From assembly GCA_000431335.1 (NCBI GenBank), contig FR888054.1, forward strand, positions 96,307 to 160,306: 64,000 nucleotides of DNA. Reading direction: 5' to 3'. Origin of the DNA: Clostridium sp. CAG:343 (lineage in GTDB: Bacteria > Bacillota > Clostridia > TANB77 > CAG-508). Below, piece after piece: positions 5,286-29,562 of this stretch (positions are counted from its first letter, which is position 1; every line of letters begins with the position of its first letter). The position numbers and the translations under genes were made by a program. Under the pieces are notes generated by a model. It was not told where the DNA came from and did not search any database. It saw only the letters and a list, made by a program, of their open reading frames with translations.

Positions 5286-5300
5286 CCTTCGGGTTATGAG
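5286..5300. repeat. 15-bp direct-repeat core (attL-like), identical to 28407..28421
   Basis: Exact match. The sequence is the reverse complement of a tRNA-Met anticodon loop plus 3' stem (ctcataacccgaagg). Confidence 0.55.
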
Positions 5301-5418
5301 CGAGGTTTAACCGATTTTTGTGAGTTTGTGAAAATTAGAGTTTTTGTTGGTATATTGATATTTACAAGAGTTTTAACTTATAGAACATTTGTGCATTTTT
5401 AGGGCATTTTTGGAGAAG

Positions 5419-5440
5419 ATTTTACCCAATTTTTACCCAA
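5419..5440. repeat. arm-type tandem repeat attttacccaatttttacccaa (candidate integrase arm-binding site)
   Basis: The identical 22-mer recurs at 28260..28281, and both copies lie just inside the island ends. Confidence 0.45.
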
Positions 5441-5527
5441 TGGGTATGGTACGTTTGTTCTTAGGAATTTGGCTCTTGTGATAGCTATTTTTATTGAGAA
5501 AAATTTTAATTTTGGAGGTAAATTTTT

Positions 5528-5821
5528 ATGAGTAATTTAAGAGAAGTTAATGATGATATTTTAAAGGATTGGTTAGATTTTAGAGAGGATGCTATTGCTT
5601 CGTTAGGTTGTGCAGAGGATAAAAAGCATTGGATTTATTTTGATGAGATTTCTGAGAGGATTTTGAAGAATGTTCCTGATCAGAATAGAAAGTATGTTGA
5701 GAAACAACTAAAACAGCTTGATGATAATTTCTTTGATTATATTTGCTATTGGAATGAGAAGTATTATAGGAATGGATTTTGTGATGGTTCTCAATTAGTT
5801 ATGGGATGTTTTTCTAATTAA
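5528..5821 (+). CDS. hypothetical small protein (97 aa)
   Basis: Clean ORF with RBS GGAGGT. A degenerate copy of its 3' end is found at 9990..10045. Confidence 0.4.
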   Translation: MSNLREVNDDILKDWLDFREDAIASLGCAEDKKHWIYFDEISERILKNVPDQNRKYVEKQLKQLDDNFFDYICYWNEKYYRNGFCDGSQLVMGCFSN

Positions 5822-5852
5822 GAATACCAGGAAAATAATTTTCCTGGTATTC
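5822..5852. terminator. bidirectional rho-independent terminator hairpin (gaataccagga/tcctggtattc)
   Basis: Perfect 11-bp inverted repeat lying between convergent genes. Confidence 0.5.
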
Positions 5853-5876
5853 CTATATTTATTCTCATATTATTTC

Positions 5877-8800
5877 TTAATCTACTTTAATTTCATTTTT
5901 CAATTCGTAATTGTCTATTTTCATTATTAAATAATTAAATCCATTTATTGAAAAATCTTCTCCTTGTTTTCCTCTTTTTAAGCTTTGACCTACTGGAGCT
6001 TCTGGCGAAATTTTATTGTATCCAATTTTTCTTAATTCTTCTATTTCTGATTCATATATATATAATTTTAATGTTTCATTTTGATCCTCACTATATAATT
6101 CATATAATTTTACTTCATCTATTGTTTGTTTTATATACTTATTGTTTTCACTTTTTATTTCTTCAATTTGTTTATCCATCTTTTTTATATTTAAAGTTGC
6201 ATCTTCTATATCATATTTACTTTCAATTTGTCCTAAAAAATAATCTTCAATAAATTGCCATCTTTCATCATCATTTTTTAATTGAGTAAAGAAATATGTC
6301 ATATAACAAACTGAATCATAATGTAATTTTTGAATTGTCGTTAATGTTCTGCTTTTATATGAATGATTATCTAATACTTTTTGTATAGTTTCTTCACTGT
6401 TTACACGAACAAAAAATTCTAAACTATTTCCTCTTTCAAATGTATATGATGTTAAGTCAAGTAATTCTAATATTTGTGCAGCAATTAATATTGGATCAGA
6501 TCTCATCTTTTTATTATCATCTTTATTAGTATTTATTACTAATATAGTTTCATTATTGTCCTTACATGACTTAAGCATATTTTCTATTGAATTTTTAATA
6601 TGATTTATAGTTCTATCATAATATGCTGAAACAATATGATATCTATTAGTTTTTGAATTATAATCACAAAACTTATATTTTCCAGCTGTATAGTTAAAAT
6701 CGTAAGAAATTAACAAACTAAGTAGTGGTTCAATTAGGTTATTTACTTTTGTTTTACTATTATTAATTCCCTTTTTTATAATTAATTCTGCTATTTCATT
6801 TGAATTATAATGTTTATTTGACATTTTCATGTCATCTAATACACTTTTTATAACATTTAACCATTGTATTGCTTTTATTTCTACATCTCCAAAATCATTT
6901 AATTTTGCAGATAATTTTAATAAAGTTCTATCACTAAAACATGTTCTGTCTATTTGTGGTAATTCCCCTAAGTAAAATTTTCTTTTAAAATTACCAAATG
7001 TTAATCCATCATATTTACCATTATAATGTTCTAACCAACATTGTTTAAAATCAAAAACATATAAATCTCCCGTATATTTAGTCTTTACATCAGATACGTC
7101 CATTTTTTCTAATTGTTTTCTATCATATTTTAATTCTAAATACTTTTTCCAACCATATTGTTCAATGATAGGCATTTTTGAATCTGAAATAAAAAATAAT
7201 CCTTTAGTAAACATACTTCTTGGTTTAAATACTAAAGGCACATAATTTGACATACTTTTAAAATCTCTCTTTATTGCTATAATTGTTGCCTTTAATTTAT
7301 TTTCTATTTCATCATCGTTTGTTGCTTGAAACACATGTGCAAATTCATCTGTAGAAACCAAAAAATTTCTTCTATTTCCAGTCTTATATTTATATAAGAT
7401 TTTCATAAGAACACCAATAATATTGTAAACTGTAATTTGAGACATTCCTTCTAATTTATTAATATATCTGAAATCTTCTTTGTAAAAATCTGTAGATGCA
7501 ATTCCTTTCATTCCAGGCTTTCTTGCCGCTCTTCCAATCTCTTGAACATAATCTGCTAAGTTTCCTGTAGGTGCAAAGTGATAAACATTTTTTATATCTT
7601 CAATATCAATTCCCATGCCAAAAGCTTTTGTTGCTAAAATTATATTCTTATTTCCTTTTCTTATATCTTCAAGTGCCTCGTCTTTGTCTATCTTATCCAT
7701 TTTTCCATGATATATAGCAACTTCATTGTCTGAAAAATTACTAGCTATATTATTTAAAGATTTTATTGTTGGAAAATATACTAGTGTTTTTTCATTATAG
7801 TTTTCAGAATAATCCCTAATTCTTTTAATTACTATTTCATCCTTTTCTTCTTTATATGCACGATCCTTTAAATGATTATATATATTAAAACTTATATCAT
7901 TTCTTTTTATCGCTCCAAAAAAGGTATCACAAGTTAAATTCAAACTCTCAACTATATCATGATACATATCTTCTGTTCCATTGCTAATAGTTGCTGTAGC
8001 TGTAAAAGTTGCAATTGGAAAAATATGTTTTGTTTTATGTCTTAATTTATCTAAATAATCTCCTAAATACCAATAATCCGGTCTAAAATTTTTTCCCCAA
8101 GTAGAAACAGTATGAGCTTCATCCACCACTAATAATCCAATTTGTCTATCTCCTATAAATGTTTCTATGTCTGCATTACTTAATAAAGTTTCAGGAGATA
8201 TATATAAGATAGAAATTTTCTTTTCTTTAATATCTTCTATAATTTTTTCCTTTTCTATTGGTGTAAATTCTGAATTTATAGTTGCTGCACAATTAGTTAA
8301 TACTTTTATATTATTCACTTGATCTTTCATTAGTCCTATTAATGGTGATATTACTATAGTTAATAATTCATTCTTTTCAGCCGCAACTATTGCAGGTATT
8401 TGGAATAAAATTGATTTACCGGCACCTGTTGGTGCTGTCACAAAAATATCTTTAAAACTTTCATTGTTTTGCGCTCTTAAAATGTTTTGATATATTGTAT
8501 CTATAATAATACTTTGATCTACATCTTCCATTTCATTACTATTAAATGGATCTTTATACATTGGGATTTTTCTAAAATTGTATTCAGAATTTTTTCTTTT
8601 TAAAACTTCTAAATATACATTATATAAATCCGGTACAACATCCCTTTTTTTTCTTTTTTCTTCTATAATATTTATCCCCATATAATTAAGAATAAATAAG
8701 AATTTTTTTATATATTTTTCATCTTTTCCTTCAATTTGAATAAATTTAATAGTATTATATTTCCCATCTAATATTTCATTAAAAACTTGAATAAACTCTT

Positions 8801-9386
8801 CTGAAGTCGAATTATCAAATAACTCTGTTTCTTTTACTATATCTAATTTTTTATTTTCATAGTACTCTGAATACCTTCTGATTAACTTTACAAACATTTC
8901 GGATATTTCATTTTCAAATTTATTATAAGAAATAACTAAATTTCCATTTCTAATTTCCATACTAGTATATATTTTCTGTAGCATGTTACTTTGAGTCGTT
9001 TCTTCTTCAAATTTTTTTATTATATTTTTCAAATTTTCACTTTGAATACCTGGATAGTAATAATCAAAACAACCTATATCTATTATTTTTATTTTATATC
9101 CTGAAGCTTGAACTAATCCATATAAATTCTTCTTTTCAACATAAATTATTTCTTCATATAAACACCAATAAATATTCTTTGAACTTAATTTGATGAAATT
9201 ATCTTTCATAAACGCTTCATCATCTACATAAAAAATATTCATCAAGTCTTTAATTATTCCTAAATCAAATATATGCTCACATTTTAAGTTGATTCTTTTA
9301 ATTATAGAATCAAAACCTTTTAACACATATATAGTTTTTTCTTCGTTAACTATCTTAGAAATTTCATCTTCAATCATCTTCAACAT
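5877..9386 (-). CDS. large RecQ-family SF2 helicase (1169 aa) with uncharacterised N- and C-terminal extensions
   Basis: Motif I TAPTGAGKS. Motif II VVDEAHTVSTWGKNFRPDY mirrors the RecQ signature DEAHC.S.WGHDFRP. Motif V/VI GMGIDIEDI...YVQEIGRAARKPG. About 300 aa N-terminal and 350 aa C-terminal have no recognised domain. Confidence 0.7.
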   Translation of the reverse strand: MLKMIEDEISKIVNEEKTIYVLKGFDSIIKRINLKCEHIFDLGIIKDLMNIFYVDDEAFMKDNFIKLSSKNIYWCLYEEIIYVEKKNLYGLVQASGYKIKIIDIGCFDYYYPGIQSENLKNIIKKFEEETTQSNMLQKIYTSMEIRNGNLVISYNKFENEISEMFVKLIRRYSEYYENKKLDIVKETELFDNSTSEEFIQVFNEILDGKYNTIKFIQIEGKDEKYIKKFLFILNYMGINIIEEKRKKRDVVPDLYNVYLEVLKRKNSEYNFRKIPMYKDPFNSNEMEDVDQSIIIDTIYQNILRAQNNESFKDIFVTAPTGAGKSILFQIPAIVAAEKNELLTIVISPLIGLMKDQVNNIKVLTNCAATINSEFTPIEKEKIIEDIKEKKISILYISPETLLSNADIETFIGDRQIGLLVVDEAHTVSTWGKNFRPDYWYLGDYLDKLRHKTKHIFPIATFTATATISNGTEDMYHDIVESLNLTCDTFFGAIKRNDISFNIYNHLKDRAYKEEKDEIVIKRIRDYSENYNEKTLVYFPTIKSLNNIASNFSDNEVAIYHGKMDKIDKDEALEDIRKGNKNIILATKAFGMGIDIEDIKNVYHFAPTGNLADYVQEIGRAARKPGMKGIASTDFYKEDFRYINKLEGMSQITVYNIIGVLMKILYKYKTGNRRNFLVSTDEFAHVFQATNDDEIENKLKATIIAIKRDFKSMSNYVPLVFKPRSMFTKGLFFISDSKMPIIEQYGWKKYLELKYDRKQLEKMDVSDVKTKYTGDLYVFDFKQCWLEHYNGKYDGLTFGNFKRKFYLGELPQIDRTCFSDRTLLKLSAKLNDFGDVEIKAIQWLNVIKSVLDDMKMSNKHYNSNEIAELIIKKGINNSKTKVNNLIEPLLSLLISYDFNYTAGKYKFCDYNSKTNRYHIVSAYYDRTINHIKNSIENMLKSCKDNNETILVINTNKDDNKKMRSDPILIAAQILELLDLTSYTFERGNSLEFFVRVNSEETIQKVLDNHSYKSRTLTTIQKLHYDSVCYMTYFFTQLKNDDERWQFIEDYFLGQIESKYDIEDATLNIKKMDKQIEEIKSENNKYIKQTIDEVKLYELYSEDQNETLKLYIYESEIEELRKIGYNKISPEAPVGQSLKRGKQGEDFSINGFNYLIMKIDNYELKNEIKVD

Positions 9387-9989
9387 TTTACTAACACCTC
9401 TTTTTTTACAATTAAAGTTTATTTATTTCTTCTATTTTAAATGTTTTAATTTTCTACATTATATCACAAAGTATTAATATGAAAAAGATCAATTATAAAA
9501 CTATTTATCTTTTAATAATACTTTTTTCAACTTAAAATTTCATCATCATAAATAACATTATTGCTTCTTGTATTGTTTTAACAATTTTGATTTTAATCTT
9601 ATTCTATCATAAACAAAAATTACAAGTATAAATTTACTCCCAACTCATTCTCGATGAAAGTCAAATAAATTAATAAATTTTAAATTATACATTTAAAATT
9701 TAACTTACAACTTTTAAGGTATAAAAGTCAACTGAATACTTACGTTTGAAATTGTAAATTTCATAAGAAATCTGCTATAATTTTTAATATAATACTAAAG
9801 ATTTTATTCTAAAAAATGCACCAACAATTATTAAAAAATTTGCTACTATTTTTTATTTTTTTTAATTTGTTATGAATAAAGAAAACATTGGATTAATTTT
9901 GATAAAATTATTGAATTTATTAAGCGAATTTTTCTAAACGAAATAAAATATATGTAAAAAATCAATTAGGTAAACTTCACAAAAATTTT

Positions 9990-10045
9990 ATGTATTATAT
10001 TTGTTATTGAAATGAGAAGTATTATAGATTTAAATTTTGTTATGT
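9990..10045 (+). repeat. degenerate duplicate of the 3' end of gene 5528..5821 inside a 730-bp non-coding AT-rich tract
   Basis: tattatatttgttattgaaatgagaagtattatag here matches gattatatttgctattggaatgagaagtattatag at 5741..5775. Confidence 0.4.
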
Positions 10046-10076
10046 TTTTCAGCTAGTTATTGCTTTAATATATAGT

Positions 10077-10107
10077 AAAAGGCGAGTTAATTCTCGCCTT
10101 TTGTTTC
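10077..10107. terminator. rho-independent terminator (aaaaggcgag ttaatt ctcgcctttt)
   Basis: Perfect 10-bp stem flanked by A and T runs. It is bidirectional and lies downstream of the MBL gene. Confidence 0.5.
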
Positions 10108-10113
10108 TTATAA

Positions 10114-11010
10114 TTAAACTTCTAATGTTCCTATATAATAGTCATAACTGTTTGATTTATATTTGTCCTTTAAAAACGAAACTGAGTAATCTTTATTAGA
10201 AACATATATATGTACATTTTTAGATTCACATTCAAATGTTATGTCTCCTGCTGAATTCTGAGTTATTGTATTATAATTACTATAATAGTTCAAGCTATTT
10301 GATGGAGCTTCCCCTATTATTATTATTTTTGGATTTATCTTGTCTAATATTTCTTTTGGAATTTTACCAGATTCTCTACCATGATGTGGAGCAAAAATAA
10401 TATCCGCTTCTTCTATCTCCAAATCATCTTTTATATTCTCCATAAAGTCCTTTTCTAAATCCCCAAACCATAATACTTTAACTCCATCTTCTAAACTATA
10501 CTTGATAATTGGTGATATATTATTAGGACTCTCTCCCTCTTTTGCATTTTCTAATGCATTTTTAAAATATTGATTATTTGTATTTGGCCATAATATATTT
10601 ATACCAGAAGATCCTCTTTCAAATCCAGAATCATCTTTTCCTTCTCTATTCATCCATTTTCTACTGCAACCCTCGTATAAATAAAAATGTTTATTTCCAT
10701 CTCTTAAAGAACAATATTCCTCAAAATCTTCTGTTTTATCTTTTTTTGTTGCTTTGTTTTCCACACAATAAAAATTATTTATACCAACTTTTTCTCTATA
10801 TCTTTTTAATCCCATGATGTGATCTTCATCTGGATGAGTAGAAATGAACCTAGTAATTCCTTTATTTTTAGATTTATCAATTATTTCATCTATAATTTTA
10901 TCCTCATTATCTTCATGCATATAACAGTCAATTACTGTAAAATTATCTGAACCATGTTTAATATAAAACATATCTCCATTTCCAACTGAAAACGATTTTA
11001 TGATACTCAT
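10114..11010 (-). CDS. MBL-fold metallo-hydrolase
   Basis: HPDEDH (HxHxDH) motif with downstream His/Asp ligands (APHHG). Confidence 0.6.
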   Translation of the reverse strand: MSIIKSFSVGNGDMFYIKHGSDNFTVIDCYMHEDNEDKIIDEIIDKSKNKGITRFISTHPDEDHIMGLKRYREKVGINNFYCVENKATKKDKTEDFEEYCSLRDGNKHFYLYEGCSRKWMNREGKDDSGFERGSSGINILWPNTNNQYFKNALENAKEGESPNNISPIIKYSLEDGVKVLWFGDLEKDFMENIKDDLEIEEADIIFAPHHGRESGKIPKEILDKINPKIIIIGEAPSNSLNYYSNYNTITQNSAGDITFECESKNVHIYVSNKDYSVSFLKDKYKSNSYDYYIGTLEV

Positions 11011-11597
11011 TTTTTTTCCTCCTTTTTATTTATTTTTTCTACTACTATTTGACTAACAAAATCTTTAGACTTTAGCCTGCATGATATAACCCCAATTATA
11101 TATGCAATTGTTATAGCTATTAGCTCTTTCCAGAAATAACTTGTCCATATTATAGTTAATACTATAAATACAATAACAAAAATAAATATTAAGAAAACAA
11201 TATCTCTTATAATACAATATTCAGCATTCTTACTTTCAACTATATTATTTTTTTCAACTGGTTTATAATAATCTCTGTAAAATATAAAATTAGGAATATT
11301 ATTCAATTCTTTTATCTTATAATTGTTCTTATCAATTCTTTTGTCATTTTTTATATATTCTTTTGCTTTCTCAAAAGGTGTTTTTTTATAAAAAATACCT
11401 AGTGCTATCCTTTGTTTTTTATTTCTATCAAACATTGATAGAAACAATAATGTAAAAACTAATAGTATTGCATCTATCGGCCATATTTCACTTATTAAAT
11501 TTGGGTAAATCACATTCAAGTTTAAAATAATATGATGACTGATTGCTATAATTAAAGTATATAACAAAATATACCTTTTCTCAAAACTTATTTCCAT
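11007..11597 (-). CDS. 4-TM membrane protein, translationally coupled to the MBL-fold gene
   Basis: Two N-terminal and two C-terminal hydrophobic helices. Its stop overlaps the start of the MBL gene by 4 nt. Confidence 0.4.
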   Translation of the reverse strand: MEISFEKRYILLYTLIIAISHHIILNLNVIYPNLISEIWPIDAILLVFTLLFLSMFDRNKKQRIALGIFYKKTPFEKAKEYIKNDKRIDKNNYKIKELNNIPNFIFYRDYYKPVEKNNIVESKNAEYCIIRDIVFLIFIFVIVFIVLTIIWTSYFWKELIAITIAYIIGVISCRLKSKDFVSQIVVEKINKKEEKK

Positions 11598-11690
11598 TAT
11601 ATTTTCTCCTTTCTCATTATCTTAATTTAAAAAAGCAAAATAATCCTGTAACTATTAATTACTCTCTTACTTTGCTTTTCCTATGTAAAC

Positions 11691-12335
11691 TTATTCTAAA
11701 TATTCTTTTAATCCATCAATTATTTTATACACTTTGGTCATTGGATTTTTTCGTGATGCTTGTCCATCTTTATTTAATTCTTCCATATATTCGCAATTCT
11801 TTATTGCTGTATGTAGCCTTTCTTCACTTGTAGCTTTTTCAAAAATGTTTGTATCGTTTTTAGTATATTCCCCTAAACCTTTTTTCTGAAATTCTTTACT
11901 TAATTCTTGTAATACATTGTCCTTTGAAATATACCTATTTACTTTCTTAAAATGTGATAATAACCACAATTCAAAATTAGGATTAGACCAAGCCACATTA
12001 TAATCACAGGTTTTAATTGCTTTATCAAATTGTTCATCTGAGTAATCATCTTTATCAAACACAACCCAAACTTGTCCATATCTTTTATTTGAATAATTTA
12101 CAAATTTATCTGTATATTTTACTAAAGCTGTGGTATTTTCACCTGTTCCTTTTATTTCAATATTAGGAATTAATACATCAACTTTGCTTCCATACTTTTC
12201 ATTTATCTTTTTCTTTAATCCATTAAAATAATTGGGTTCAGTTTGCTTCCCTTCACATACAATTAAGTAATTAGCTGGTGCAAGCCTCTTACTTTTTAAT
12301 CTGTCTTTTCTTGATATATTTCTATTATTCTTCAT
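11691..12335 (-). CDS. RloB-like (Toprim-like) protein, AbiLii-like
   Basis: N-terminus LIVCEGKQTEPNYF is the hallmark of the RloB family. It overlaps the upstream ATPase gene by 11 nt. Confidence 0.6.
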   Translation of the reverse strand: MKNNRNISRKDRLKSKRLAPANYLIVCEGKQTEPNYFNGLKKKINEKYGSKVDVLIPNIEIKGTGENTTALVKYTDKFVNYSNKRYGQVWVVFDKDDYSDEQFDKAIKTCDYNVAWSNPNFELWLLSHFKKVNRYISKDNVLQELSKEFQKKGLGEYTKNDTNIFEKATSEERLHTAIKNCEYMEELNKDGQASRKNPMTKVYKIIDGLKEYLE

Positions 12336-13557
12336 GTATTATATCAAATTCTTCCAATACTGGAATAGCACCATACCTTCCAGTTAAATAGTCTTTATTG
12401 TATGTTGCATCATTTCTTACTTTTTTACCTGCATTTTTATCATCTTCTAATATATAATCAGATAATGCATATATTTCTGAAATTCCATCTTTGTCTTTTT
12501 CTGCAAACCATATTTCATCTCTTCTAAATGTTTCTTTATTTAAGTTTACCGTATCATGTGTTGAATATATTAACTGTCCATTTCCTATATTGGTCAGACT
12601 ATTATGAAACAAGTTAATAATATATCTAGTTAATAGTGGATGTAATTTTGCATCTAATTCATCAACAAATAATACCATTCCATTTTTTAATGCATCCATA
12701 AAGAAATCAAATAAGTGAAACATTTTTCTCGTACCATTAGATTCTAAATAAAATGGCAATGCTTTTAACTTTCCATTTTCTCCCCTGTGAAGAACTTCAA
12801 TATCTATAATACCATTATTATTTTTAACAGCTTCTATTGAATCTGGTGTAGTTTTTATTCCTTCAATTCCAGAATCAAATGTCTTTATAAATTTTAATAA
12901 TTCTTTTTTATAAATTTCATCGCTTAGTATTTTTAATGAAACTCTGTTATTAATAAATCTTTCAAAATTTGGATTACCTAAGTCTAAATACATGCTATTC
13001 ACAAACCAGTCATATACATTGCTAAAATCCTCATTATTTCTATCTATTTTGCTATATATATTTAAGAATAATGTTCTTTCATCTATATTCACTAAATCTG
13101 AAATTTTATTAGGTTTCATTGATACATTGTTATTTTCTCTTTCGAAAATAACATAGAATTTATTTACCCTTTTCTCAAATAACCATTCTGAAATAATTGT
13201 ATCCTTTAAAACTTCAAAACCATATTTATATATTTTATTATTTTTAGCTAATATTTCTACTTCTAAAGCTATTGGATCATTATTTATCATAAAACTATAA
13301 ATATTTTCTTCATCTATTGGAGAATTCTTTTTAGAGTCATCACTTACCAATATTCTTTTTTTCATATAGTCAAAAGCTTGTAACACATTAGTTTTTCCAC
13401 TAGCATTGGCACCATAAATTGCAGATACTTTCAAATATTCACCATTTTCTGTTTTAGCCACATTATATTCATGTTCTTTTAATGATGTTGCTTCCATATC
13501 TAAACAATTTTCATTTTTAAAAGATTTGAAATTTTTAAAACTAAATCTTATTAACAT
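12325..13557 (-). CDS. AAA ATPase (AAA_21/AAA_15 ABC-like), AbiLi-like
   Basis: Walker A GANASGKTN, a split ABC-type ATPase layout, and Walker B LFVDELD. Confidence 0.6.
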   Translation of the reverse strand: MLIRFSFKNFKSFKNENCLDMEATSLKEHEYNVAKTENGEYLKVSAIYGANASGKTNVLQAFDYMKKRILVSDDSKKNSPIDEENIYSFMINNDPIALEVEILAKNNKIYKYGFEVLKDTIISEWLFEKRVNKFYVIFERENNNVSMKPNKISDLVNIDERTLFLNIYSKIDRNNEDFSNVYDWFVNSMYLDLGNPNFERFINNRVSLKILSDEIYKKELLKFIKTFDSGIEGIKTTPDSIEAVKNNNGIIDIEVLHRGENGKLKALPFYLESNGTRKMFHLFDFFMDALKNGMVLFVDELDAKLHPLLTRYIINLFHNSLTNIGNGQLIYSTHDTVNLNKETFRRDEIWFAEKDKDGISEIYALSDYILEDDKNAGKKVRNDATYNKDYLTGRYGAIPVLEEFDIIHEE

Positions 13558-13646
13558 ATTAAAATCCTCCTTTGCTTTATATATTATATGCTATAATTTA
13601 AAAAATATCAATATTTTTGAGGTGTTTTCTCAAAAATTATTGATAT

Positions 13647-14408
13647 TTATTTAAAAATACTATTAAATTCTAATGGTACTATATTTTCATATAGTAATGT
13701 AAACTGTGAATTAATTTGCCTATAATCATGATAATGTCCAAAATACCATTTCTTAAACTCACATTTTTCTGAAATTTTTTGCAAATAATCTGTTAAAATA
13801 TCTTTTTTATAAGATGGATTTAACAATGTTTGTATGCTTGTAGGACAGCAATGAGAAATAATATAATCAACTTTATAATTTACATTTTCTAAATTTTTTA
13901 TTCCATTTTTCATTTCCTCATTAGTAGGAAGTTCTAAATCCCACCACGAATAATCTCTTATTCTAAAATATGCTCCTCTTTTTCGATATTCATATATTTT
14001 TTCATATTCATCTATGTTTAATATTCCATCCATTATGTCATGTGATCTAGCACCACCAAATGTGAAAAACTTTTTATTATCTATATTAAATATTTCTCCA
14101 CGCATTAAATGAATAACTGATTCTCTTATTTTATGAACTTTACCACCATGCCATTCTTCTACTGGATAATTATATAATCTTTCAAAATTCTCATGATTAC
14201 CATCAACAAATAAAGTGGTAAAATTTTTATTATTTAACCAATCTAGCCAATACTTTTCATATATACTCTCTACTATATAGTTCCATACTCCACCAAAATC
14301 ACCACAAATAATTATATAATCATTTTTAGTCATTTCAGATTGTATAGAAAATTTATTTTCTTCAAATCTTAAAAAATCAGCATGTGTATCACCTGTAATA
14401 TAAATCAT
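13647..14408 (-). CDS. calcineurin-like metallophosphoesterase
   Basis: Motifs GDTHAD, GDFGG and GNHEN. Confidence 0.65.
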   Translation of the reverse strand: MIYITGDTHADFLRFEENKFSIQSEMTKNDYIIICGDFGGVWNYIVESIYEKYWLDWLNNKNFTTLFVDGNHENFERLYNYPVEEWHGGKVHKIRESVIHLMRGEIFNIDNKKFFTFGGARSHDIMDGILNIDEYEKIYEYRKRGAYFRIRDYSWWDLELPTNEEMKNGIKNLENVNYKVDYIISHCCPTSIQTLLNPSYKKDILTDYLQKISEKCEFKKWYFGHYHDYRQINSQFTLLYENIVPLEFNSIFK

Positions 14409-14432
14409 TTTTCTTTACCCCAATTTCTTTTT

Positions 14433-15236
14433 TTAAAATCTGTTTATGTTTTTTCCATATTTCTCCCAATTTATTTCATATGTTTCCTGTTCTGTATTAT
14501 TATCTATTAACATTAGTATTTTTTTACCTACTATCCTTGATGCAAAATAACATATTATTGCATCATCTAAATGGAATGTTCTATCTATTTCATCATTTGA
14601 TAGAATTTCGTGTTTGGATATGTTATACAAATCAACAAACAATTTTAACTCTTCACTTAAATTTTTTTCGAAAATATTTTTATCTGATATGTAATTTAAT
14701 AGTTTTCCTAAAGGATACTTCCTAACTTTCAAAAATTCTAATTTTTTATAAAAACGTAAATATATTTTTATTGATTCTTCGAAATGATGTCCACAATTTT
14801 CTATTATGTCTCTCGCTGTATAGTTTAAATCTAAAATATCTATATCTGTTCTAACATATTGAAAACATCTATATGCATTTCTATATATTGAACCTTGAAA
14901 TGCATTAAAATTGGCTGGATCACAACCTTGACAATAACCACCTATTCCACCTAATGATTGATCAAATTTCCATAGTTCTATAGTTTTATAATTATCTCCT
15001 GCTTTTTTTATATTTTCAATGATACTATCAATAGTATCATTTTGAGTTTTTGTAAATATTACTTTTAATTTTTGTGTTTGTTCTAACATATTCTTTCCTC
15101 TATTAATTATATTTTTGAATATTAAATAATAATAAGCAAAATAATCATGCAATATACACAATTTATCTTGCTTATCCTTTGTATTAATTTGGTAAATAAT
15201 TATATTTATTAGTAATTTCTTGATTTCAGTTCTCAT
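14433..15236 (-). CDS. hypothetical protein (Cys-rich central region)
   Basis: ORF only. It is tightly linked upstream of the phosphoesterase with a 24-nt gap. No recognisable domain. Confidence 0.35.
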   Translation of the reverse strand: MRTEIKKLLINIIIYQINTKDKQDKLCILHDYFAYYYLIFKNIINRGKNMLEQTQKLKVIFTKTQNDTIDSIIENIKKAGDNYKTIELWKFDQSLGGIGGYCQGCDPANFNAFQGSIYRNAYRCFQYVRTDIDILDLNYTARDIIENCGHHFEESIKIYLRFYKKLEFLKVRKYPLGKLLNYISDKNIFEKNLSEELKLFVDLYNISKHEILSNDEIDRTFHLDDAIICYFASRIVGKKILMLIDNNTEQETYEINWEKYGKNINRF

Positions 15237-15490
15237 TCTAGAATCTTTCTTTTATGTCACAATCAATAATCATATTCTTATTAGCTGTTTCAACAAATTC
15301 TTAATCTATTTTTTGAGGTCATAATTTCTTGTATTATTATTCTATGTCTTCTACACTCATTCTTTAATTGTATTAAATCACTATTTTTAAATTTAGTAGA
15401 AATTCTTCATTTAAATAAATATTTTTTAGTCTTCAAAAATAAACAATATAATTAGTTTTTTATTATATTTGTTAATATAATTTATACTAT

Positions 15491-17059
15491 CTATTTATTA
15501 ATCTTTATCGTCAAATTATTATATCCATATTTATTTAATAATCCTAATAAAGCTTGTCCATCTATAAGAGTTAGAGGTTTATCTTGTGCAAAATCATATG
15601 CTTCTTTTCCATAAAAACTTGTAGTAACAAGAATTCCTTTTGTAGCGCCTTCATGTATCATTGTACCATATAAATCTCTTACAGCGGATACTGGAACAAC
15701 ATTATTATATCTTTTAGCTTGTATAACAAACTTTCCACCTCTTATTGGATCATCATCAAAAGCAATTGCATCAACGCCTCCATCATGACTTGCTTGTGTT
15801 ACTTTAACTTCTCCACCATTAACATTAAACATTTTATCAAATAATTCACGTATAAAATATTCAAAATCCTCCCATGGCATGTTTGCTAGATTAAAACCAT
15901 CTAAATCAATATTAGCAACATCTTTACTCTCTATAAATCTAGAATCTTCTCTATTAATTTTCATATATGGAATAACCGGTGTTAGGGATAAAATATTCGG
16001 TGCAAAAATTCCTTTTAATCCTTTTATACATTCTTTATAATCAACATTTTCAATATTTAAATCCAAGAATTTTTCTTTAGTAGACTCTACTGTAATTATA
16101 CAACTTTCAGCTTCTTTCCCTGTACTTTTGTCAATATACTTAATCCATCCATTATATACAATTTTATCAATATTGTTATTATCATCTGAACGTAATATAT
16201 CATTCATAGTTTTCAAACAACACATAAAAATGATATCATTATAAAACTTCTCAAACTTTTTGTCTGTAAGCTTTATTTCATCAATTTCATTCCTTGTACT
16301 AACATATTTATGTTGGATGATTCTTGGGACAGTATCAGCATTTGGCAAGTAATATGCAATAATTAGTGTTTTACTTTCTTTTAAATATTGTATTTCGAAA
16401 TCTTTAACAACTTCGCTTGGCATATAAATATTTTCAATAACATATTCAAAATAATCCTCTATCTGTTGGATATTACCTTCGTTATATTCTTTTCTATTAT
16501 TTTCAACTTGTTTGTTCTTTTCTTCTTGTTCTTTTAAAAATTTTTCTTTTTGCCTATCATATTCTTCTCTTTCTTCTTTTAGTTTCTTATTATATTCATC
16601 ATTTCTTTTTAGTAATTCTGCATTTGCTTCTTCTTCTTTTTTTATTCTAAAATTTTTCCTATTAGTAGAAAAAATTTCTATCCAGCTTTTTTTGGGGACA
16701 TTTAATTCTTCTTTTATTTCTTCTATTGTGTCTCTTTTTAACTTTGATTCAAATTTTCTAAATTCGGATTTATCTATTAAACTGTCATAATATTTTTTTG
16801 ATTTCTGAATATTTCTTTTATTTATAATATTTTTATAACTTTCTATCTTCTTTTCATCGTTTTTTGTTAATTGTTCGGCTTTTCTTTTCATTTCTTCTTT
16901 ATTTTGTTTAGCAATCTCTCTTTTTACTCTTTCGTCCCAAATTCTTTTTTGATTTTCAACCTTGGCATCAAGTTCGTACCTTGTTGGTGCACTAATTTCC
17001 TTGCTTACTCCTAAAAAGTCATTACTTAACACTACTCTATAATAGTTTCTATATGCCAT
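15491..17059 (-). CDS. Mrr_cat-type restriction endonuclease-domain protein with N-terminal K/E-rich coiled coil
   Basis: C-terminus FEYFIRELF...GGVDAIAF...VIQAKRY matches the Mrr catalytic (PD-(D/E)xK) domain. A long KE-rich helical region sits upstream. Confidence 0.6.
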   Translation of the reverse strand: MAYRNYYRVVLSNDFLGVSKEISAPTRYELDAKVENQKRIWDERVKREIAKQNKEEMKRKAEQLTKNDEKKIESYKNIINKRNIQKSKKYYDSLIDKSEFRKFESKLKRDTIEEIKEELNVPKKSWIEIFSTNRKNFRIKKEEEANAELLKRNDEYNKKLKEEREEYDRQKEKFLKEQEEKNKQVENNRKEYNEGNIQQIEDYFEYVIENIYMPSEVVKDFEIQYLKESKTLIIAYYLPNADTVPRIIQHKYVSTRNEIDEIKLTDKKFEKFYNDIIFMCCLKTMNDILRSDDNNNIDKIVYNGWIKYIDKSTGKEAESCIITVESTKEKFLDLNIENVDYKECIKGLKGIFAPNILSLTPVIPYMKINREDSRFIESKDVANIDLDGFNLANMPWEDFEYFIRELFDKMFNVNGGEVKVTQASHDGGVDAIAFDDDPIRGGKFVIQAKRYNNVVPVSAVRDLYGTMIHEGATKGILVTTSFYGKEAYDFAQDKPLTLIDGQALLGLLNKYGYNNLTIKINK

Positions 17060-17070
17060 TTTTCCATCTC

Positions 17071-19032
17071 CTACTCATATTTGTACTCTTCACTATCTTC
17101 AGCAACTTTTAGTTCAGTATATTGATTTTCCTCATCTACTGTGTAAATTATTTCTTTGGCTGTAGTCAATCTGTTTTTTAAATATTCAGATAAAGCTTTG
17201 TCTTCGCAGTATATATAACACCCATTTTGTCCTCTTGTTAATAATGTCCTATATGTATTTTTTATAATTTCATCTGCCAATTTTAAAGCTCCTTCTGGAT
17301 TTTCTTTATACATCTTCTTTATTCCAGATAAAGATTTATCTGTTGATGCTCTTTCTTTAAAATCTGTTATAATTTTTCCGTTTTCATATCGTAAATCTTT
17401 TCCTATAATTACTCCAACATAGTCAAATTCTAATCCTTGTGATGTATGTATGCAACCAGCTTGTTCAACAGAATCTTTATCTATTGCCCAAATTGTTTTA
17501 TTAAAATTCCATTTCATTTTAAAATCATATTCTGGTATCTCTATGTCATATTTATCACCTTTAGGATCTTCTTTTGAAATCCAATCCCAGCAGTATCCTG
17601 CCAATATTCTTGATTTATTCTTAATATTATTACATCTAATAATTTGTTCTTTTAGCTCATTTGGATTATCAAAAACTTTAACTCTATAATCTTTAAGAAA
17701 TGTCATATCTATTTCTTCATCAGTCACGTCACCATACTGTAGAGAGCTTTCTACCCAATCTATAAATTTTTCAGCTCCTCCGCATCTAAATTGAGCATTT
17801 AATTTTCCATATGATATTTCAGCATTTAATTCTTTAGCAAAAAATTCTATTCTTTCTTTTGTTCCATAATCATCTATATGTATATGTTGCTTTGAATCAA
17901 TAAAAAATATTGCAAATCTAGTAGCATTAATAATCTCTTTTATTTGATTCTCTCCTCTTTTTAGGAATCCTGTCTTTTCGGTAAGTCTATGTGCTTCATC
18001 AACGATCAATGCATCAAACTCATTGCTTTTTTCATTTATATATGATCCTGACCCACAAAATAAATTATCAATTTCAGTCTTTTTATATGTTCCTTTTAAT
18101 TGAACAGAATAAACATCTCTTGGTGTTTGATTTTTTGTTATATACTGACAGTTCATTCCATACTTTCCCAAAAATTGTCCTAGTAAATTTATTGCAATTA
18201 CAGACTTTCCTGTACCAGGTCCACCTTCTACTATATAAACTCTTTTCTTACCATCTTTTTTTGATAATTTTGCTAATCTTTTTGCTTCTTCAAATACATC
18301 CTTTTGTAAATCAACCATAGAAAATTCTTCTTTACCATTTAGCATATTTAATATATTATCCTGTAATTGTTTTGAAGGTTTGATTCCACCTTCTTCTAGT
18401 ATATATAATGTTTCCTTATTATCTCCATATTTTATATGTTTTCTAATAAATTCTTTTAGCTTATCATTCTCTCCATTCAAAAAAATTGGTGACTCTTTTA
18501 AAAGGCTTCTATATTGATTGTTTGTTATAGCATCATTTTCTGTTTTTTCATATCTATGTAAACACGAACATGGAATTATATCCATTTTTTCTTCTTCTGC
18601 AGCCGCATAGAAATTTTTCATAATTTTTGCATATGAAAGTGCTTGATATGAAGGATGTTGTACTATACCATATGCTTTTACTTCAACCATATCATCTCTA
18701 TCTGTAACTACTTTAGCACTATTCCACCTTTTGAATTCTATTACTATAATTGTGTGTTCCTTCTCTTCGTTTAATCCACATATTATAAAATCCACTCTTA
18801 ATTTTGAATTATATAATTTAAATTCCATTGCTACAGAAATATCATTTGGAAATATATTATCTCTTAATATTTTTTCCATATGATTTGCTGTATCTATCCA
18901 AGATTCATTTTCACTACTACCTACATTAAATCCTAATCTTGCTTTTATTTTTTTGGCTACTTGATCATTATATACATCTTCTAAAAAAGATTGTTTCGTT
19001 GCCTCATATACTATCATAATAATTGCCCCCAT
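17071..19032 (-). CDS. nuclease-helicase: N-terminal PD-(D/E)xK-like segment plus DUF2075/SF1-type P-loop ATPase
   Basis: N-terminus D...IEFKRW is a PD-ExK-like motif. Walker A GGPGTGKS and Walker B/DEAH-like VDEAHRL are present. The C-terminal region resembles a UvrD-like SF1 helicase. Confidence 0.55.
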   Translation of the reverse strand: MGAIIMIVYEATKQSFLEDVYNDQVAKKIKARLGFNVGSSENESWIDTANHMEKILRDNIFPNDISVAMEFKLYNSKLRVDFIICGLNEEKEHTIIVIEFKRWNSAKVVTDRDDMVEVKAYGIVQHPSYQALSYAKIMKNFYAAAEEEKMDIIPCSCLHRYEKTENDAITNNQYRSLLKESPIFLNGENDKLKEFIRKHIKYGDNKETLYILEEGGIKPSKQLQDNILNMLNGKEEFSMVDLQKDVFEEAKRLAKLSKKDGKKRVYIVEGGPGTGKSVIAINLLGQFLGKYGMNCQYITKNQTPRDVYSVQLKGTYKKTEIDNLFCGSGSYINEKSNEFDALIVDEAHRLTEKTGFLKRGENQIKEIINATRFAIFFIDSKQHIHIDDYGTKERIEFFAKELNAEISYGKLNAQFRCGGAEKFIDWVESSLQYGDVTDEEIDMTFLKDYRVKVFDNPNELKEQIIRCNNIKNKSRILAGYCWDWISKEDPKGDKYDIEIPEYDFKMKWNFNKTIWAIDKDSVEQAGCIHTSQGLEFDYVGVIIGKDLRYENGKIITDFKERASTDKSLSGIKKMYKENPEGALKLADEIIKNTYRTLLTRGQNGCYIYCEDKALSEYLKNRLTTAKEIIYTVDEENQYTELKVAEDSEEYKYE

Positions 19033-19042
19033 AATTATATCT

Positions 19043-19360
19043 TTATAGCTTATTATATTTTGTACTTACACCCTTTGCTTTTTCTACTGGATATTTTTTC
19101 TTTGTTTTTTCTAATTTCTTTAATATTATATCTTTTGGATTAACATTTAATTTCATAGCCATTTGAATACAATATGTAAATACATCTGCTAATTCTTCGC
19201 ATACTTCTTCTTTATTGTAATTTTCACTATCCCATTGAAAGCACTCTAATAATTCTCCAGCTTCTATCGAAATTGATTTTGCTAAATTTTCTGGCGAATG
19301 AAATTTATCCCAATCTCTTTCTTCATTAAATTTACTTATTTCTTTCATCAATTCTTTCAT
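19043..19360 (-). CDS. MazG-like nucleotide pyrophosphohydrolase
   Basis: Small all-alpha protein with EE..E.LADV..Y motifs. Start set at the Met preceded by AAAGGA. Confidence 0.55.
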   Translation of the reverse strand: MKELMKEISKFNEERDWDKFHSPENLAKSISIEAGELLECFQWDSENYNKEEVCEELADVFTYCIQMAMKLNVNPKDIILKKLEKTKKKYPVEKAKGVSTKYNKL

Positions 19361-19460
19361 ATTATCATTTCCTTTAATATACATTTAATCTATTATACTT
19401 TATATCATAAAACGACTTTTTTCTCAATAGTTTTATTATATTTGTGTTTGATTGTTGTAA

Positions 19461-20135
19461 CTAATTTTTATGAAAAAAATGATCATATGGATAACCTGCT
19501 TTAATATATAACTCCGTTAACTCCATTTTATATTTCTCCAATAACTCTAAATACTTTTGCTTAAAAACATTTTTACAAATCCATTCAACTCCTTTTCTTG
19601 AAATAATAACTTTATTATTATCTAAATATTTATAATTACTAAATCCATTATCACACATTTTTTTAATTGCTTTTCTTATACTAGATTCTGCTCTATTAAA
19701 GTATTTTTCTAGTTGTTTTATGTCCATATCTTCATTCCACCAATTTTCATTATGCTCTACTTTTAAAAAATCTTCATACAATTTAATTCTGGTTTCAAAA
19801 AATTCTACATCAGCATCTATTAAAGATTTTTCTTTTTCAAAATACACAAATTTTATCCAGTCATACCCTTCTACTAAAATAAAATATTTTCTACTTCTTA
19901 CTTTTTCACTTCTCCATCTACAAGTTGGATGTTTTTTCAACATAACATCTACTGCTTTTCTTAAATCTACATGCTTTACTTCTTTACCATGTTTTGTTGT
20001 TATTCCTAATAGTTGTAATCTTTTTAAAATTTTATTATATGATAAAAAAATACTATCCAAAATTTGTTCTGAATCTCTCCACATTTTCACCACTTCCTTG
20101 CTATAAAAATTTATTAATGCTAGTTTACGAAGCAT
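19461..20135 (-). CDS. hypothetical protein
   Basis: ORF only. It may be the first gene of the MazG operon. Confidence 0.3.
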   Translation of the reverse strand: MLRKLALINFYSKEVVKMWRDSEQILDSIFLSYNKILKRLQLLGITTKHGKEVKHVDLRKAVDVMLKKHPTCRWRSEKVRSRKYFILVEGYDWIKFVYFEKEKSLIDADVEFFETRIKLYEDFLKVEHNENWWNEDMDIKQLEKYFNRAESSIRKAIKKMCDNGFSNYKYLDNNKVIISRKGVEWICKNVFKQKYLELLEKYKMELTELYIKAGYPYDHFFHKN

Positions 20136-20155
20136 TAATAATTAGCAAAATTTAT

Positions 20156-20275
20156 TTTGCTCCGAATAGTGTGGCATTTTTGGTGTCCAATATTCGCCAG
20201 CATGGTGTTTTGACACCCTTTTCGCTGTTTAGGGCAAAATGCCCTAATACCCTTTTTGCTCTCCGAGGGATATTT
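20156..20275. other. GC-rich structured intergenic element (candidate small RNA or recombination/transfer site)
   Basis: Locally GC-rich in an AT-rich genome. Hairpins ggtgtc...gacacc and tagggca aaa tgcccta are present. It shares a ggcatttttgg/tagggca motif with 5396..5412. Confidence 0.3.
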
Positions 20276-20418
20276 TTTTATAAAAACTCTCTTATTTTTA
20301 TTTTAAATAATTTCAAAAAAGTTCAAATTTTGAGTTTAGAAATTTGAACTTTTTTCTTTACTTTTGTCTTTAAATATACTATAATAAATTTAGTTTTTGA
20401 ATTAAGTTAGCATTTAGT

Positions 20419-21255
20419 TTAGTCGCTTATGCTAGCTTTTTCTTTTTGATTTTTATCATCTTCTTTTAGTTCAATTCCATAACACATTCTATATAATTTT
20501 TGAATAATAGCATTGGATAATTCTTTATCATTACTCTGATAAAATCTATGTAATAAACTTTCCTTATTAAATCTAGTTGTTATTATAATTGGTAGTTTAT
20601 TTTCATTTCTATTTTCTATAATTGTATATAATTTATCTAGAGCCCACTGGCTTATTTTTTCTGTTCCTAAATCATCTATTACAACCATATCTGTATTTGA
20701 AAATAATTCTATTAATTCATTTTCTGACTTTGAATTATCTTTAAAAGTTTCTTTGATCATATCTAACAATGATGATAACCTCCCCATCAACACTATTTTA
20801 TCTTCTTTAATTAATTCATTTGAAATTGATGCTGCTAAATGTGTTTTTCCTACGCCTGTATTTCCAGTAATAATAAGTCCATTTTCTTGTTTGTTTTCGG
20901 TACATTTTTTAGTATAATCTTTTGCTATTTCAACTTCATTTTTATTAGAATCTGTTACTTTAAAATTGTTAAAATTATAATCCTTTAGTCTTTTACTAAT
21001 GTAATTTTGCGAATAAAACTGATTGATAATTTCCCTATAATGTTCATTCTTTTTCTGCTCTTGAACTTCTAAATCAATTCCTTTCCAAAATTCAACAGAT
21101 TCCTTACAAGTACATCTTTCATATTCAATGGAATCTGGAGATATATTAGTATATAAATAATCTAAGCCTATTGGTTTTAATTCTTTTCCACAAAATTTGC
21201 ATTTATTGTGAAAATTCTTTTGATAATTATTACATTTTGTATTCTCTAAATCCAT
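20419..21255 (-). CDS. DnaC/IstB-like AAA+ helicase loader with N-terminal Cys-rich zinc-finger
   Basis: Walker A GNTGVGKTHLA and Walker B VVIDDLGTE. The N-terminus has C..C...C.C. Confidence 0.6.
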   Translation of the reverse strand: MDLENTKCNNYQKNFHNKCKFCGKELKPIGLDYLYTNISPDSIEYERCTCKESVEFWKGIDLEVQEQKKNEHYREIINQFYSQNYISKRLKDYNFNNFKVTDSNKNEVEIAKDYTKKCTENKQENGLIITGNTGVGKTHLAASISNELIKEDKIVLMGRLSSLLDMIKETFKDNSKSENELIELFSNTDMVVIDDLGTEKISQWALDKLYTIIENRNENKLPIIITTRFNKESLLHRFYQSNDKELSNAIIQKLYRMCYGIELKEDDKNQKEKASISD

Positions 21256-21745
21256 TTATATTCTCATTCTCCTTTCTGTTATTTTCTATAATTTCTTCTA
21301 ATGTATTATCTTCTTGTGCGTTATTTTCCGTTATTGTAACGTTACTTTTTTCTTTTTCACTTTTCAATCTTTCACGATATTTTTGTTGTCTTATTCTATT
21401 TTGTTCTTTATATTTTTCGGATGATTCAATACTTTGGTATTCATCCCAATTCTTAATTTTGTATGCTCCTTCTTCTACAATTATCATATTTAATTCTTGA
21501 AATCTTTTAATAATTTTCTCAATCTTTTTCTTAGACTTTCCCATAATCTTAAAAAAATCTTCTATTGTCATTGGTTTATTATCTCCTATTACTAATTTAC
21601 CGTTGCAATTACATTCTATAGCAATAGTCAATAATTGAATCCATACTCTAAAATATGTATCTCCATCTTGTTCTTTTAGTAATATTTGAATTTTTCTGTT
21701 TGAAAATATTTTAATTTCAATTTTTAACCATTGTAAATTATACAT
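21230..21745 (-). CDS. phage replisome organizer N-terminal domain protein (DnaD-like)
   Basis: W.K....F...K...L......G...YF.VW..LL..A pattern at the N-terminus. It overlaps the DnaC-like gene. Confidence 0.5.
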   Translation of the reverse strand: MYNLQWLKIEIKIFSNRKIQILLKEQDGDTYFRVWIQLLTIAIECNCNGKLVIGDNKPMTIEDFFKIMGKSKKKIEKIIKRFQELNMIIVEEGAYKIKNWDEYQSIESSEKYKEQNRIRQQKYRERLKSEKEKSNVTITENNAQEDNTLEEIIENNRKENENINGFREYKM

Positions 21746-21773
21746 ATCCTCCTTTCCTCACTTTCCCTATAAT

Positions 21774-21971
21774 CTAGCTAATAGATTGTTGTTCCATATT
21801 TTCTAAATATTCATCTAGTGCTTGTACTCTAAATAAATATTTTCCACCAACTTTTGAGCATGGTATTTGCTTTCTTCTTACTAATTGATTGACTAACCAA
21901 TAAGATATTCCTAAATACTCTGCTGCTTCTTTCATTGTTAGTGTAGTTCTTTGAACTTTTTGTAATTCCAT
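21774..21971 (-). CDS. excisionase-family (MerR-like) HTH DNA-binding protein
   Basis: MKEAAEYLGIS...VNQLVRRKQIP..KVGGKYLF is the typical Xis/AlpA HTH. Confidence 0.5.
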   Translation of the reverse strand: MELQKVQRTTLTMKEAAEYLGISYWLVNQLVRRKQIPCSKVGGKYLFRVQALDEYLENMEQQSIS

Positions 21972-22246
21972 AGTATCACCTCCTTATATTTTTCTAGAAG
22001 AGATTTTTATCTTTCCTTCCCTTCTATTTAATAGCCCACAAACTACCTTCAAAATAAGCCCCTTTTCAAAAATTTTTTTATATTTTTTTGTTAATTTTAT
22101 TTTGTTAGTGTTTTCAATAGTTTCAAGGATTATTTTTTATTAAACTTATTGCATTTCGCGTTAGTTTTTTGTATAATTTAATTAATTTGTTAGCAATTTT
22201 ATTTTGGTTATTTTATTGCAATTTGTATTTATAGGAGGAAATTTTA

Positions 22247-24747: not shown

Positions 24748-24767
24748 TACGATACTCTCCTTTTGTC

Positions 24768-29554: not shown

Positions 29555-29562
29555 ATTCCCTC

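Follow-up and report, generated by a model that had tools for sequence, protein, structure and literature searches.

Among the components of bacterial immune islands whose function is unexplained, helicases are the most common. The protein considered here is a RecQ-like helicase of 1169 residues encoded in a 64,000-nucleotide stretch of DNA from Clostridium sp. CAG:343 (contig FR888054.1, positions 96,307 to 160,306), which is called the window below and is numbered from its first nucleotide. The best match to its structure model is the core of E. coli RecQ (1OYW/1OYY, 27% identity). The two proteins share the motor, the DEAH box, the aromatic-rich loop (HxxSxWGxxFRPxY) and motif 0. Unlike E. 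coli RecQ, the window's helicase lacks the Cys4 module and the HRDC domain, has an insertion in motif 0, and possesses an extra N-terminal region of 255 residues and an extra C-terminal region of about 530 residues. PsyrT and RqlH, the helicase-PRTase toxins of PsyrTA and RqlHI, also have a RecQ-like motor and are found in accessory or defence DNA, and the PADLOC model of PsyrT matches the motor of the window's protein. However, the window's helicase has neither a phosphoribosyltransferase (PRTase) domain nor a PsyrA/RqlI partner, and the architecture outside the motor is unrelated. DpdF, the helicase of the Dpd cluster for 7-deazaguanine DNA modification and restriction, gives the second-best PADLOC match, again on the motor (E=1e-65). 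Identity with DpdF was rejected, as the protein scores 148.6 bits against a cut-off of 550 with NF041063 and the island that carries it has no dpd genes.

RECQL5, a RecQ helicase, makes direct contact with RNA polymerase II. Human RECQL5 is the best sequence match to the motor among proteins of known structure (E=4e-36), but it is eukaryotic, it binds the polymerase via unrelated KIX/SRI modules and it has no homology to the window's helicase outside the motor. The PDB entries with its sequence contain other components besides the helicase. HelD is an NTP-driven helicase-like motor of Gram-positive bacteria that recycles RNA polymerase and is joined to it via a Gre-factor-like module (PMC7749165, PMC7749167). 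HelD may be a working analogy, as it is among the top-probability structural matches of the C-terminal part of the window's helicase. However, HelD is a UvrD-like protein of helicase superfamily 1 (SF1) and its Gre-like part, a coiled coil at the N-terminus, reaches into the secondary channel, whereas the motor described here is a RecQ-like member of superfamily 2 (SF2) and its predicted resemblance is to the globular C-terminal domain of Gre factors. At the level of the whole element, P4-like satellites are defence-carrying elements with cargo hotspots (PMC9122126). The island in the window is similar in that it combines an integrase, a replication module and a variable anti-phage block beside a conserved end, with cargo exchanged between related elements. 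It differs in being a low-GC Clostridia island at a tRNA-Met site, with a conserved 97-residue terminal gene of its own and no capsid or packaging genes seen.

The explanation that best fits the data, to which we assign a probability of about 0.6, is that the protein is a cassette-borne RecQ-like helicase that acts against phages or other mobile DNA from within this island and is possibly tethered to RNA polymerase. The anti-phage or anti-mobile-DNA role would be rather likely when taken by itself. The tether is speculative, and we regard it as somewhat doubtful.

The helicase and its family

The two convergent open reading frames (ORFs) of 1169 and 97 residues that an initial annotation of this DNA had described are both present. 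The parts of the larger gene are as follows.

5877..9386, minus strand: helicase gene, 1169 residues, RecQ-like SF2 helicase of the PDLC01089 family
8622..9386, minus strand: family-specific N-terminal region, residues 1-255, alpha/beta
7467..8615, minus strand: RecQ-type motor, residues 258-640, with motif 0 (carrying an insertion), Walker A, DEAH, aromatic-rich loop and motif VI
6225..7466, minus strand: family-specific C-terminal region, residues 641-1054, with predicted winged-helix-like modules and no Cys4 zinc site
5880..6224, minus strand: lineage-specific C-terminal extension, residues 1055-1169, a helix and a beta domain predicted to resemble the C-terminal domain of Gre factors

The RecQ-type core proposed in the initial annotation is upheld, as its motifs are invariant and RecQ cores are the best matches by both sequence and structure. 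The segment VVDEAHTVSTWGKNFRPDY is located at residues 419-437. Across an alignment of 46 relatives, TAPTGAGKS (Walker A), VVDEAH, TWGKNFRPDY (the aromatic-rich loop), motif III and QEIGRAAR are invariant, and the RecQ motif 0 is found at about residues 258-295 with an insertion of about 15 residues. Judged from the sequence, all the ATPase and translocation motifs are intact. Pfam recognizes only DEAD (307-468) and Helicase_C (518-622) on the entire protein, and the NCBIfam RecQ models cover residues 312-667 only. Both of these models score under their thresholds, with 198.6 bits against a cut-off of 219.8 for recQ_fam (TIGR00614) and 212.5 bits against 640.2 for the recQ equivalog. The best matches among PDB sequences are the cores of RECQL5, bacterial RecQ, WRN and BLM (E 1e-26 to 4e-36). 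The full-length AlphaFold2 model has a mean predicted local distance difference test (pLDDT) of 82 and a predicted template modelling score (pTM) of 0.74. Foldseek superposes it on RecQ catalytic cores only (E=3e-20 over about 400 columns), and in BFVD it matches helicase cores only, with a query-normalised TM-score (TMq) of at most 0.27.

The lack of evident RQC and HRDC modules had been noted from the sequence alone, and for HRDC it is borne out. No Pfam match to HRDC was found in the helicase or in the C-terminal regions of 32 relatives, even at E<=1. Pfam likewise gave no RQC match in the helicase or in the relatives' C-terminal regions, and no RecQ winged-helix domain is among the Foldseek matches, but the structure model does have winged-helix-like modules. 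A Cys4 zinc module is not apparent either, in that the invariant and near-invariant columns of the 46-relative alignment between 633 and 731 hold no conserved cysteine.

The family of RecQ-like SF2 proteins to which the helicase belongs is large and functionally uncharacterised; it is distributed over many phyla and occurs abundantly in gut metagenomes. The PADLOC model PDLC01089 ("C3a193, poss. alt. Cas3") matches residues 63-1054 and covers positions 43-982 of its 983 (E=2.3e-133). Distant relatives match the same model with E-values of 1e-140 to 1e-149, and the PADLOC models of DpdF, PsyrT, BrxH and Cas3 match the motor only. Relatives of 1040-1250 residues align over 89-100% of their length, and such full-length relatives occur in Clostridia, Saccharibacteria, Streptococcus, Paenibacillus, Staphylococcus, Selenomonadales and Bacteroidota. 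A protein identical to the window's helicase is indexed in 587 blocks of the sequence collection. The conserved columns of the family alignment extend to G1052. The flanking domains had been called novel in the initial annotation, but they are not unique to this protein, as they are conserved end to end across a family for which a PADLOC model already exists.

The sizes of the flanking regions also need to be revised. The N-terminal region has about 255 residues rather than 300, and what follows the motor amounts to about 530 residues (640-1169) rather than 350. Profiles of the two regions, built from 32 sequences each, were compared with PDB sequences and Pfam, and both the N-terminal and the C-terminal profile returned noise only. 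A phmmer search with residues 1-255 against 1.84 billion representatives gave 16 matches, all of which are family members or fragments at contig ends, so that no other architecture bearing this region was found at phmmer sensitivity. Its few invariant residues are G24 and P112, and E78 is near-invariant; a catalytic role for the N-terminal 255 residues is argued against because so few positions are invariant. Fold searches covered the full-length model and a separate model of residues 640-1169 (pLDDT 81). With the latter, Foldseek gave no match at E<=0.001. The matches below that level include the winged-helix domain of NFRKB (probability 0.94), HelD in complex with B. subtilis RNA polymerase (probability 0.69) and, at low probability, Dcc1 and the ROQ domain of Roquin. 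The C-terminal part is thus modelled with winged-helix-like folds. The view that the flanks hold no recognisable domain stands insofar as sequence searches link them to no curated family or solved structure. It does not stand for the C-terminus, which is predicted to be winged-helix-like and Gre-factor-like.

The last 115 or so residues are confined to the window's clade, whose proteins have 1143-1172 residues. Eighteen diverged members of this clade, 25-88% identical to the window's helicase, were scanned singly with Pfam. GreA_GreB (PF01272) was matched in 13 of them and no other family recurs. A search of a 5.8-billion-protein set with a profile of the extension returned four fragments only. 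The extension probably has a fold like that of the Gre C-terminal domain, and the lines of evidence for this are weighed below. Another clade (P0098, P0104, P0113, P0114 and P0118) has a different C-terminal extension of about 100 residues (FPYSNW...GEF...FSYVWEDRKIIVY) for which Pfam gives no match. The conserved acidic and lysine pattern in this second extension could mark a small nuclease-like module.

The island and the helicase cassette

The helicase lies at the cargo end of a 23.1-kb island (5286..28421) that is integrated in a tRNA-Met gene. The window has a GC content of about 25%, and the features of the island and its surroundings are listed here.

5286..5300: left attachment (att) core CCTTCGGGTTATGAG, an exact direct repeat of 28407-28421 and part of the tRNA-Met anticodon stem-loop
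5395..5441, plus strand: arm-type repeat block with two copies of TTTTACCCAA, candidate arm sites that the integrase may bind
5528..5821, plus strand: small terminal gene, 97 residues, convergent with the helicase gene
5822..5852: hairpin terminator with a 14-bp stem between the convergent small gene and helicase gene, part of the helicase cassette
9454..9861: AT-rich spacer, outside the cassette common to loci L116-L118 and outside the pseudogene
9862..10060, plus strand: decayed pseudogene of the small gene, codons ~26-93, a probable relic of a former island end
10074..10105: bidirectional hairpin terminator, 3' of the pseudogene and of the MBL gene
10114..11597, minus strand: PDC-M48B-like gene of the metallo-beta-lactamase (MBL) fold (10114-11010) and an overlapping gene for 196 residues
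11691..13557, minus strand: AbiL cargo, AbiLi at 12325-13557 and AbiLii/RloB at 11691-12335
22247-24571: segment with an IS256-type (Transposase_mut) gene split in two ORFs (23423-23773, 23813-24571), preceded by a DUF6076 protein
24768-25508 and 25522-26106: Pycsar-like pair beside the integrase, a cyclase-like protein with a weak Guanylate_cyc match and PycTM
26910..28103, plus strand: tyrosine integrase (Phage_integrase, Phage_int_SAM_3; phrog_1 E=3e-76)
28236..28281, plus strand: second copy of the arm-type repeat block, just inside the integrase-side end
28377..28421, minus strand: 3' half of tRNA-Met, read from the sequence, ending in the right att core 28407-28421

These features are those of a tRNA-integrating tyrosine-recombinase island, with an integrase at one end, direct repeats that are part of a tRNA and breaks in synteny at the ends. 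The 15-nt core CCTTCGGGTTATGAG occurs at both ends (5286-5300 and 28407-28421), where 0.01 matches would be expected by chance. In contigs with other flanks, similarity to the window starts at 5274-5287 and ends at 28421-28423, and in locus L105 an intact tRNA-Met spans the integrase-side junction. The arm block consists of tandem 11-mers, extends over 46 nt that are 87% identical to 28236-28281 (E=3e-10) and has a conserved position in loci L095-L102. From the integrase inwards, the island encodes the integrase, the Pycsar pair, the split IS256-type transposase, DUF6076, HTH_17, a replisome organiser and a DnaC-like loader, followed by a MazG-like protein, an SLFN-type helicase, Mrr, a metallophosphatase, AbiL, the MBL and 196-residue proteins, the pseudogene, the helicase and the small gene. 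The split IS256-type element is probably inactivated. The MBL-fold protein matches the PADLOC model PDLC04673 (PDC-M48B) over almost its full length (E=5e-147). The 196-residue protein encoded upstream of it has no match in PADLOC, Pfam or PHROG, and may be a variant partner in a candidate PDC-M48B system.

The helicase gene is a self-contained single-gene cassette (5819-9453) that moves between anti-phage islands. Homologues that are 81-90% identical are found between GmrSD and a type I restriction-modification (RM) system in L116, and after Kiwa, an RM pair and DUF4268 in L117-L119. At the nucleotide level, the identity of 80-90% to L116-L118 is limited to 5819/5868-9406/9453, and L117 and L118 share the block 5819-9453 at 90%, including the hairpin at 5822-5852. 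Because the similarity is confined in this way, the helicase is taken to move as a single gene together with this hairpin. The initial annotation had suggested that the helicase was inserted or shuffled by recombination within the island. The data agree with this idea, as the cassette is common to unrelated islands and is flanked here by one intact and one decayed copy of the terminal gene.

The gene-free tract of about 730 bp that had been described on the 5' side of the helicase gene is also present. Between 9387 and 10113 there is no coding-like ORF of at least 20 residues, and a search of 5000-10300 with Rfam, which includes this tract, gave nothing credible. The best promoter-like site for the helicase is at 9485-9458 on the minus strand. 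It is not above chance in AT-rich DNA, as the scan returned 44 sites where 42.5 were expected for DNA of 19-25% GC.

The neighbourhoods of the relatives were surveyed by calling ORFs in 80 of their genome loci and clustering the proteins. Of these loci, 70 have enough upstream sequence to be judged, and in 37 of the 70 a sigma-70 gene directly precedes the helicase gene on its strand. The gap between the two genes is -44 to +20 nt in 35 of these 37 loci, and the sigma factors have 340-430 residues with regions 2, 3 and 4 all above the Pfam cut-offs. A helicase ORF was called in 77 loci, and in 10 of these (L022, L025, L043, L054, L066, L069, L071, L078, L081 and L088, with the helicase at ~10001-13200 in most of them), a gene for a NERD and UvrD-like protein of 530-590 residues lies immediately downstream at a gap of -35 to +12 nt (PADLOC RTasNERD-Hel, E=4e-65). 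This pair may be another two-gene system in which a helicase of this family takes part. In the remaining loci, including those of the window's clade, the helicase stands alone with neither a sigma-70 nor a NERD/UvrD-like gene. Type I RM systems, PLD-helicases, C5 methyltransferases and serine recombinases recur near the family.

Function and a possible link to RNA polymerase

If the helicase acts in defence, it would be expected to use ATP for 3'-5' translocation of the RecQ type on foreign DNA or on transcription-associated structures. In the window's lineage, the Gre-like C-terminal domain might dock the motor at the rim of the secondary channel of RNA polymerase. In most other lineages, the upstream sigma-70 factor could supply the link to the polymerase or have a regulatory role. 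The sigma-70 operon in about half of the relatives, together with the possible Gre-like domain in a lineage without the sigma gene, suggests that the motor acts at RNA polymerase, which to our knowledge is the target of few defence systems. A wider proposal is that PDLC01089 helicases in general are unrecognised immune motors coupled to RNA polymerase, either by a sigma-70 paralogue or by a fused Gre-like domain. The motor would then be delivered to transcribing or phage-hijacked polymerase, where it would strip or unwind transcription complexes on invading DNA, and the sigma or Gre module might sense phage proteins that attack the polymerase. We consider this wider proposal distinctly improbable. 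The sigma and Gre associations of these helicases are, as far as was found, undescribed in the literature searched.

A number of observations weigh against a defence motor held at the polymerase. The searches found no literature that describes the PDLC01089 helicase family, including any on RecQ together with a sigma factor or defence. The helicase contains no recognisable nuclease, which leaves unexplained how unwinding alone would block a phage. The sigma gene may merely regulate the expression of the operon, and Saccharibacteria and Streptococcus clades have neither the sigma gene nor the extension. It follows from the latter that a tether to RNA polymerase cannot be essential to the family. 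As to the extension itself, the best match to PF01272 (E=4e-4) scores 20.6 bits and is below the gathering cut-off of 26.9. Foldseek gives Gfh1, a Gre homologue bound to RNA polymerase (3aoi_X), a probability of 0.96, but with E=0.067 and a target-normalised TM-score (TMt) of 0.32. In hhalign, the clade profile was compared with two GreA sequences that are 38% identical to each other, one of them from locus L056. The Gre C-terminal signature is in register, with P=7e-4 and a probability of 27%. A profile of the extension found nothing among PDB sequences. An alternative is a stand-alone defence helicase with no connection to RNA polymerase, in which the resemblance to Gre would be due to chance in a small beta domain and the sigma genes would control their own operon only. 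Every Gre-like signal is sub-threshold, entire clades are without both sigma gene and extension, and another clade pairs the helicase with the NERD/UvrD-like protein. However, three lines (Pfam, Foldseek and hhalign), each of them weak, converge on the Gre fold family and may reflect a genuine resemblance, with HelD among the top-probability Foldseek matches. Moreover, sigma and helicase genes are so tightly spaced in 35 loci, often overlapping, that the two proteins look more like a unit than like a helicase and its distant regulator. A stand-alone helicase of this kind is a serious alternative but an unlikely one.

Other readings fare worse. RecQ helicases process replication and recombination intermediates, and the island has a replisome organiser, a DnaC-like loader and an integrase, so the helicase might serve the replication, recombination or transfer of the island rather than defence. 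However, it is placed in the variable cargo end, outside this core module; the same integrase and replication genes occur without it in L107 and L095-L102, and its 81-90% identical homologues are in other islands among GmrSD, Kiwa and RM genes. A service role is very unlikely on these grounds. Whether the helicase and the 97-residue protein could be paired like a toxin and an antitoxin, as in PsyrTA/RqlHI, was also considered. The PsyrT model matches the motor with E=2.5e-57, and a distance of 55 nt separates the small gene from the stop codon of the helicase. In RqlH the toxicity resides in the PRTase (PMC4670107), whereas in the window's protein the PsyrT match spans the motor only (313-623) and Pfam finds no PRTase domain. 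The two genes are convergent rather than operonic, and the small gene is absent from the 80 relatives' loci and from L116-L119, while it occurs in islands free of the helicase. Such a pair is contradicted by these co-occurrence data and is highly improbable. The PDLC01089 label "poss. alt. Cas3", and Cas9 or Cas12a loci within about 10 kb in L004 and L005, might be read as signs of an alternative Cas3-like CRISPR effector. In both contigs, however, these loci are outside the island in the variable chromosomal flank. There are no cas genes in the island or beside the 80 relatives, no CRISPR array in the window and no HD nuclease domain in the protein, and the Cas3 models match the motor with E-values of 1e-5 to 1e-6 only. 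Of all the readings, the Cas3-like one is the least probable. The reading that we prefer is still that of a cassette-borne anti-phage or anti-mobile-DNA helicase.

The terminal gene, the history of the island and neighbouring elements

The small gene is a conserved terminal gene of a family of islands that integrate in tRNA-Met. The 97-residue protein has more than 2000 clusters of relatives at 75-99% identity, and no match in Pfam, NCBIfam, PADLOC or PHROG. The gene always adjoins the att core and the DNA beyond it varies. Islands with wholly different cargo have a copy that is 79% identical, at an equal distance behind the same core and arm repeats. Because it accompanies other cargo and is missing from the loci of the helicase's relatives, it is considered a terminal gene and not a partner of the helicase. 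The functional tie between the two genes that the initial annotation had raised as a matter for co-occurrence is thereby discounted. Excision would place the small gene across attP from int, directly downstream and in the same direction of transcription, which suggests that expression of the small gene may depend on circularisation.

A degenerate copy of the last 50 bp of the small gene had been noted at 9990..10045, on the far side of the helicase gene. The duplication is real, but it is an old pseudogene of about 200 bp that covers most of the gene rather than its tail. The segments 5603-5802 and 9862-10060 are 71% identical over 183 nt (blastn within the window, E=2e-18), and at the protein level codons 26-93 are recognised by tblastn (E=9e-10). 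The pseudogene has stops in every frame and a GC content of 16%, against 30% in the intact gene, and each of the two copies has its own hairpin terminator on the 3' side. An assembly artefact is ruled out, as the pseudogene is at the identical position in all 22 helicase-carrying loci fetched, which come from 11 different metagenome samples.

The genomic anatomy and the history of the island and its helicase cassette can be reconstructed with high confidence. The block of AbiL, 196-residue gene, MBL gene, pseudogene, helicase and small gene is constant, and the rest of the island, upstream of this block, varies. The DNA upstream of the pseudogene lacks codons 1-25 as well as the arm repeats and the core, which fits a deletion junction near 9862. 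The pseudogene would have been the end gene at a time when the island stopped after the MBL gene, and an element ending in the helicase and the small gene would have joined later beyond the old end. A second island may have integrated in tandem at the same att site, with later loss of the intervening integrase and att DNA, or recombination may have taken place inside the conserved terminal gene. The order of these events is a reconstruction, because the search for an island in which the MBL gene is followed directly by an intact small gene yielded none; the 24 longest MBL-carrying contigs are all of the helicase type. More generally, defence cargo would accrete by the addition of cassettes at the conserved terminal gene on the att side, with decayed copies marking earlier ends.

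At this tRNA-Met site, defence islands have accreted in tandem, as locus L107 shows. Right after the same island (11514-20200 of L107) come genes for a KAP NTPase, for Gabija (GajA/GajB) and for a further integrase, and that integrase is followed, at the junction of the tandem islands, by another copy of the small gene with a frameshift.

On the integrase side of the window's island, the 5' half of the tRNA that would be expected to the right of the att core at 28421 is missing. An intact tRNA-Met is found 4.6 kb away (33009-33084) on the opposite strand, with the core at 33040-33054, whereas in L105 the tRNA lies directly on the island junction. The DNA between the core and this tRNA (within 28422-33084) seems to have been inverted through recombination of two att cores that lie in opposite orientation. 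Another integrative element, about 9.9 kb long (33009-42943), extends from this tRNA-Met to a 52-nt repeat of the tRNA 3' end (42892-42943). Its cargo includes an integrase (41455-42741), HTH_17, an M23 peptidase (39391-40584), a Spo0A-like response regulator (37813-38535) and an extracytoplasmic function (ECF) sigma factor (35415-35951). The 64-kb window thus has two Spo0A_C response regulators, the one in the second element and a chromosomal one (1919-2707) beside a histidine kinase (164-1609).

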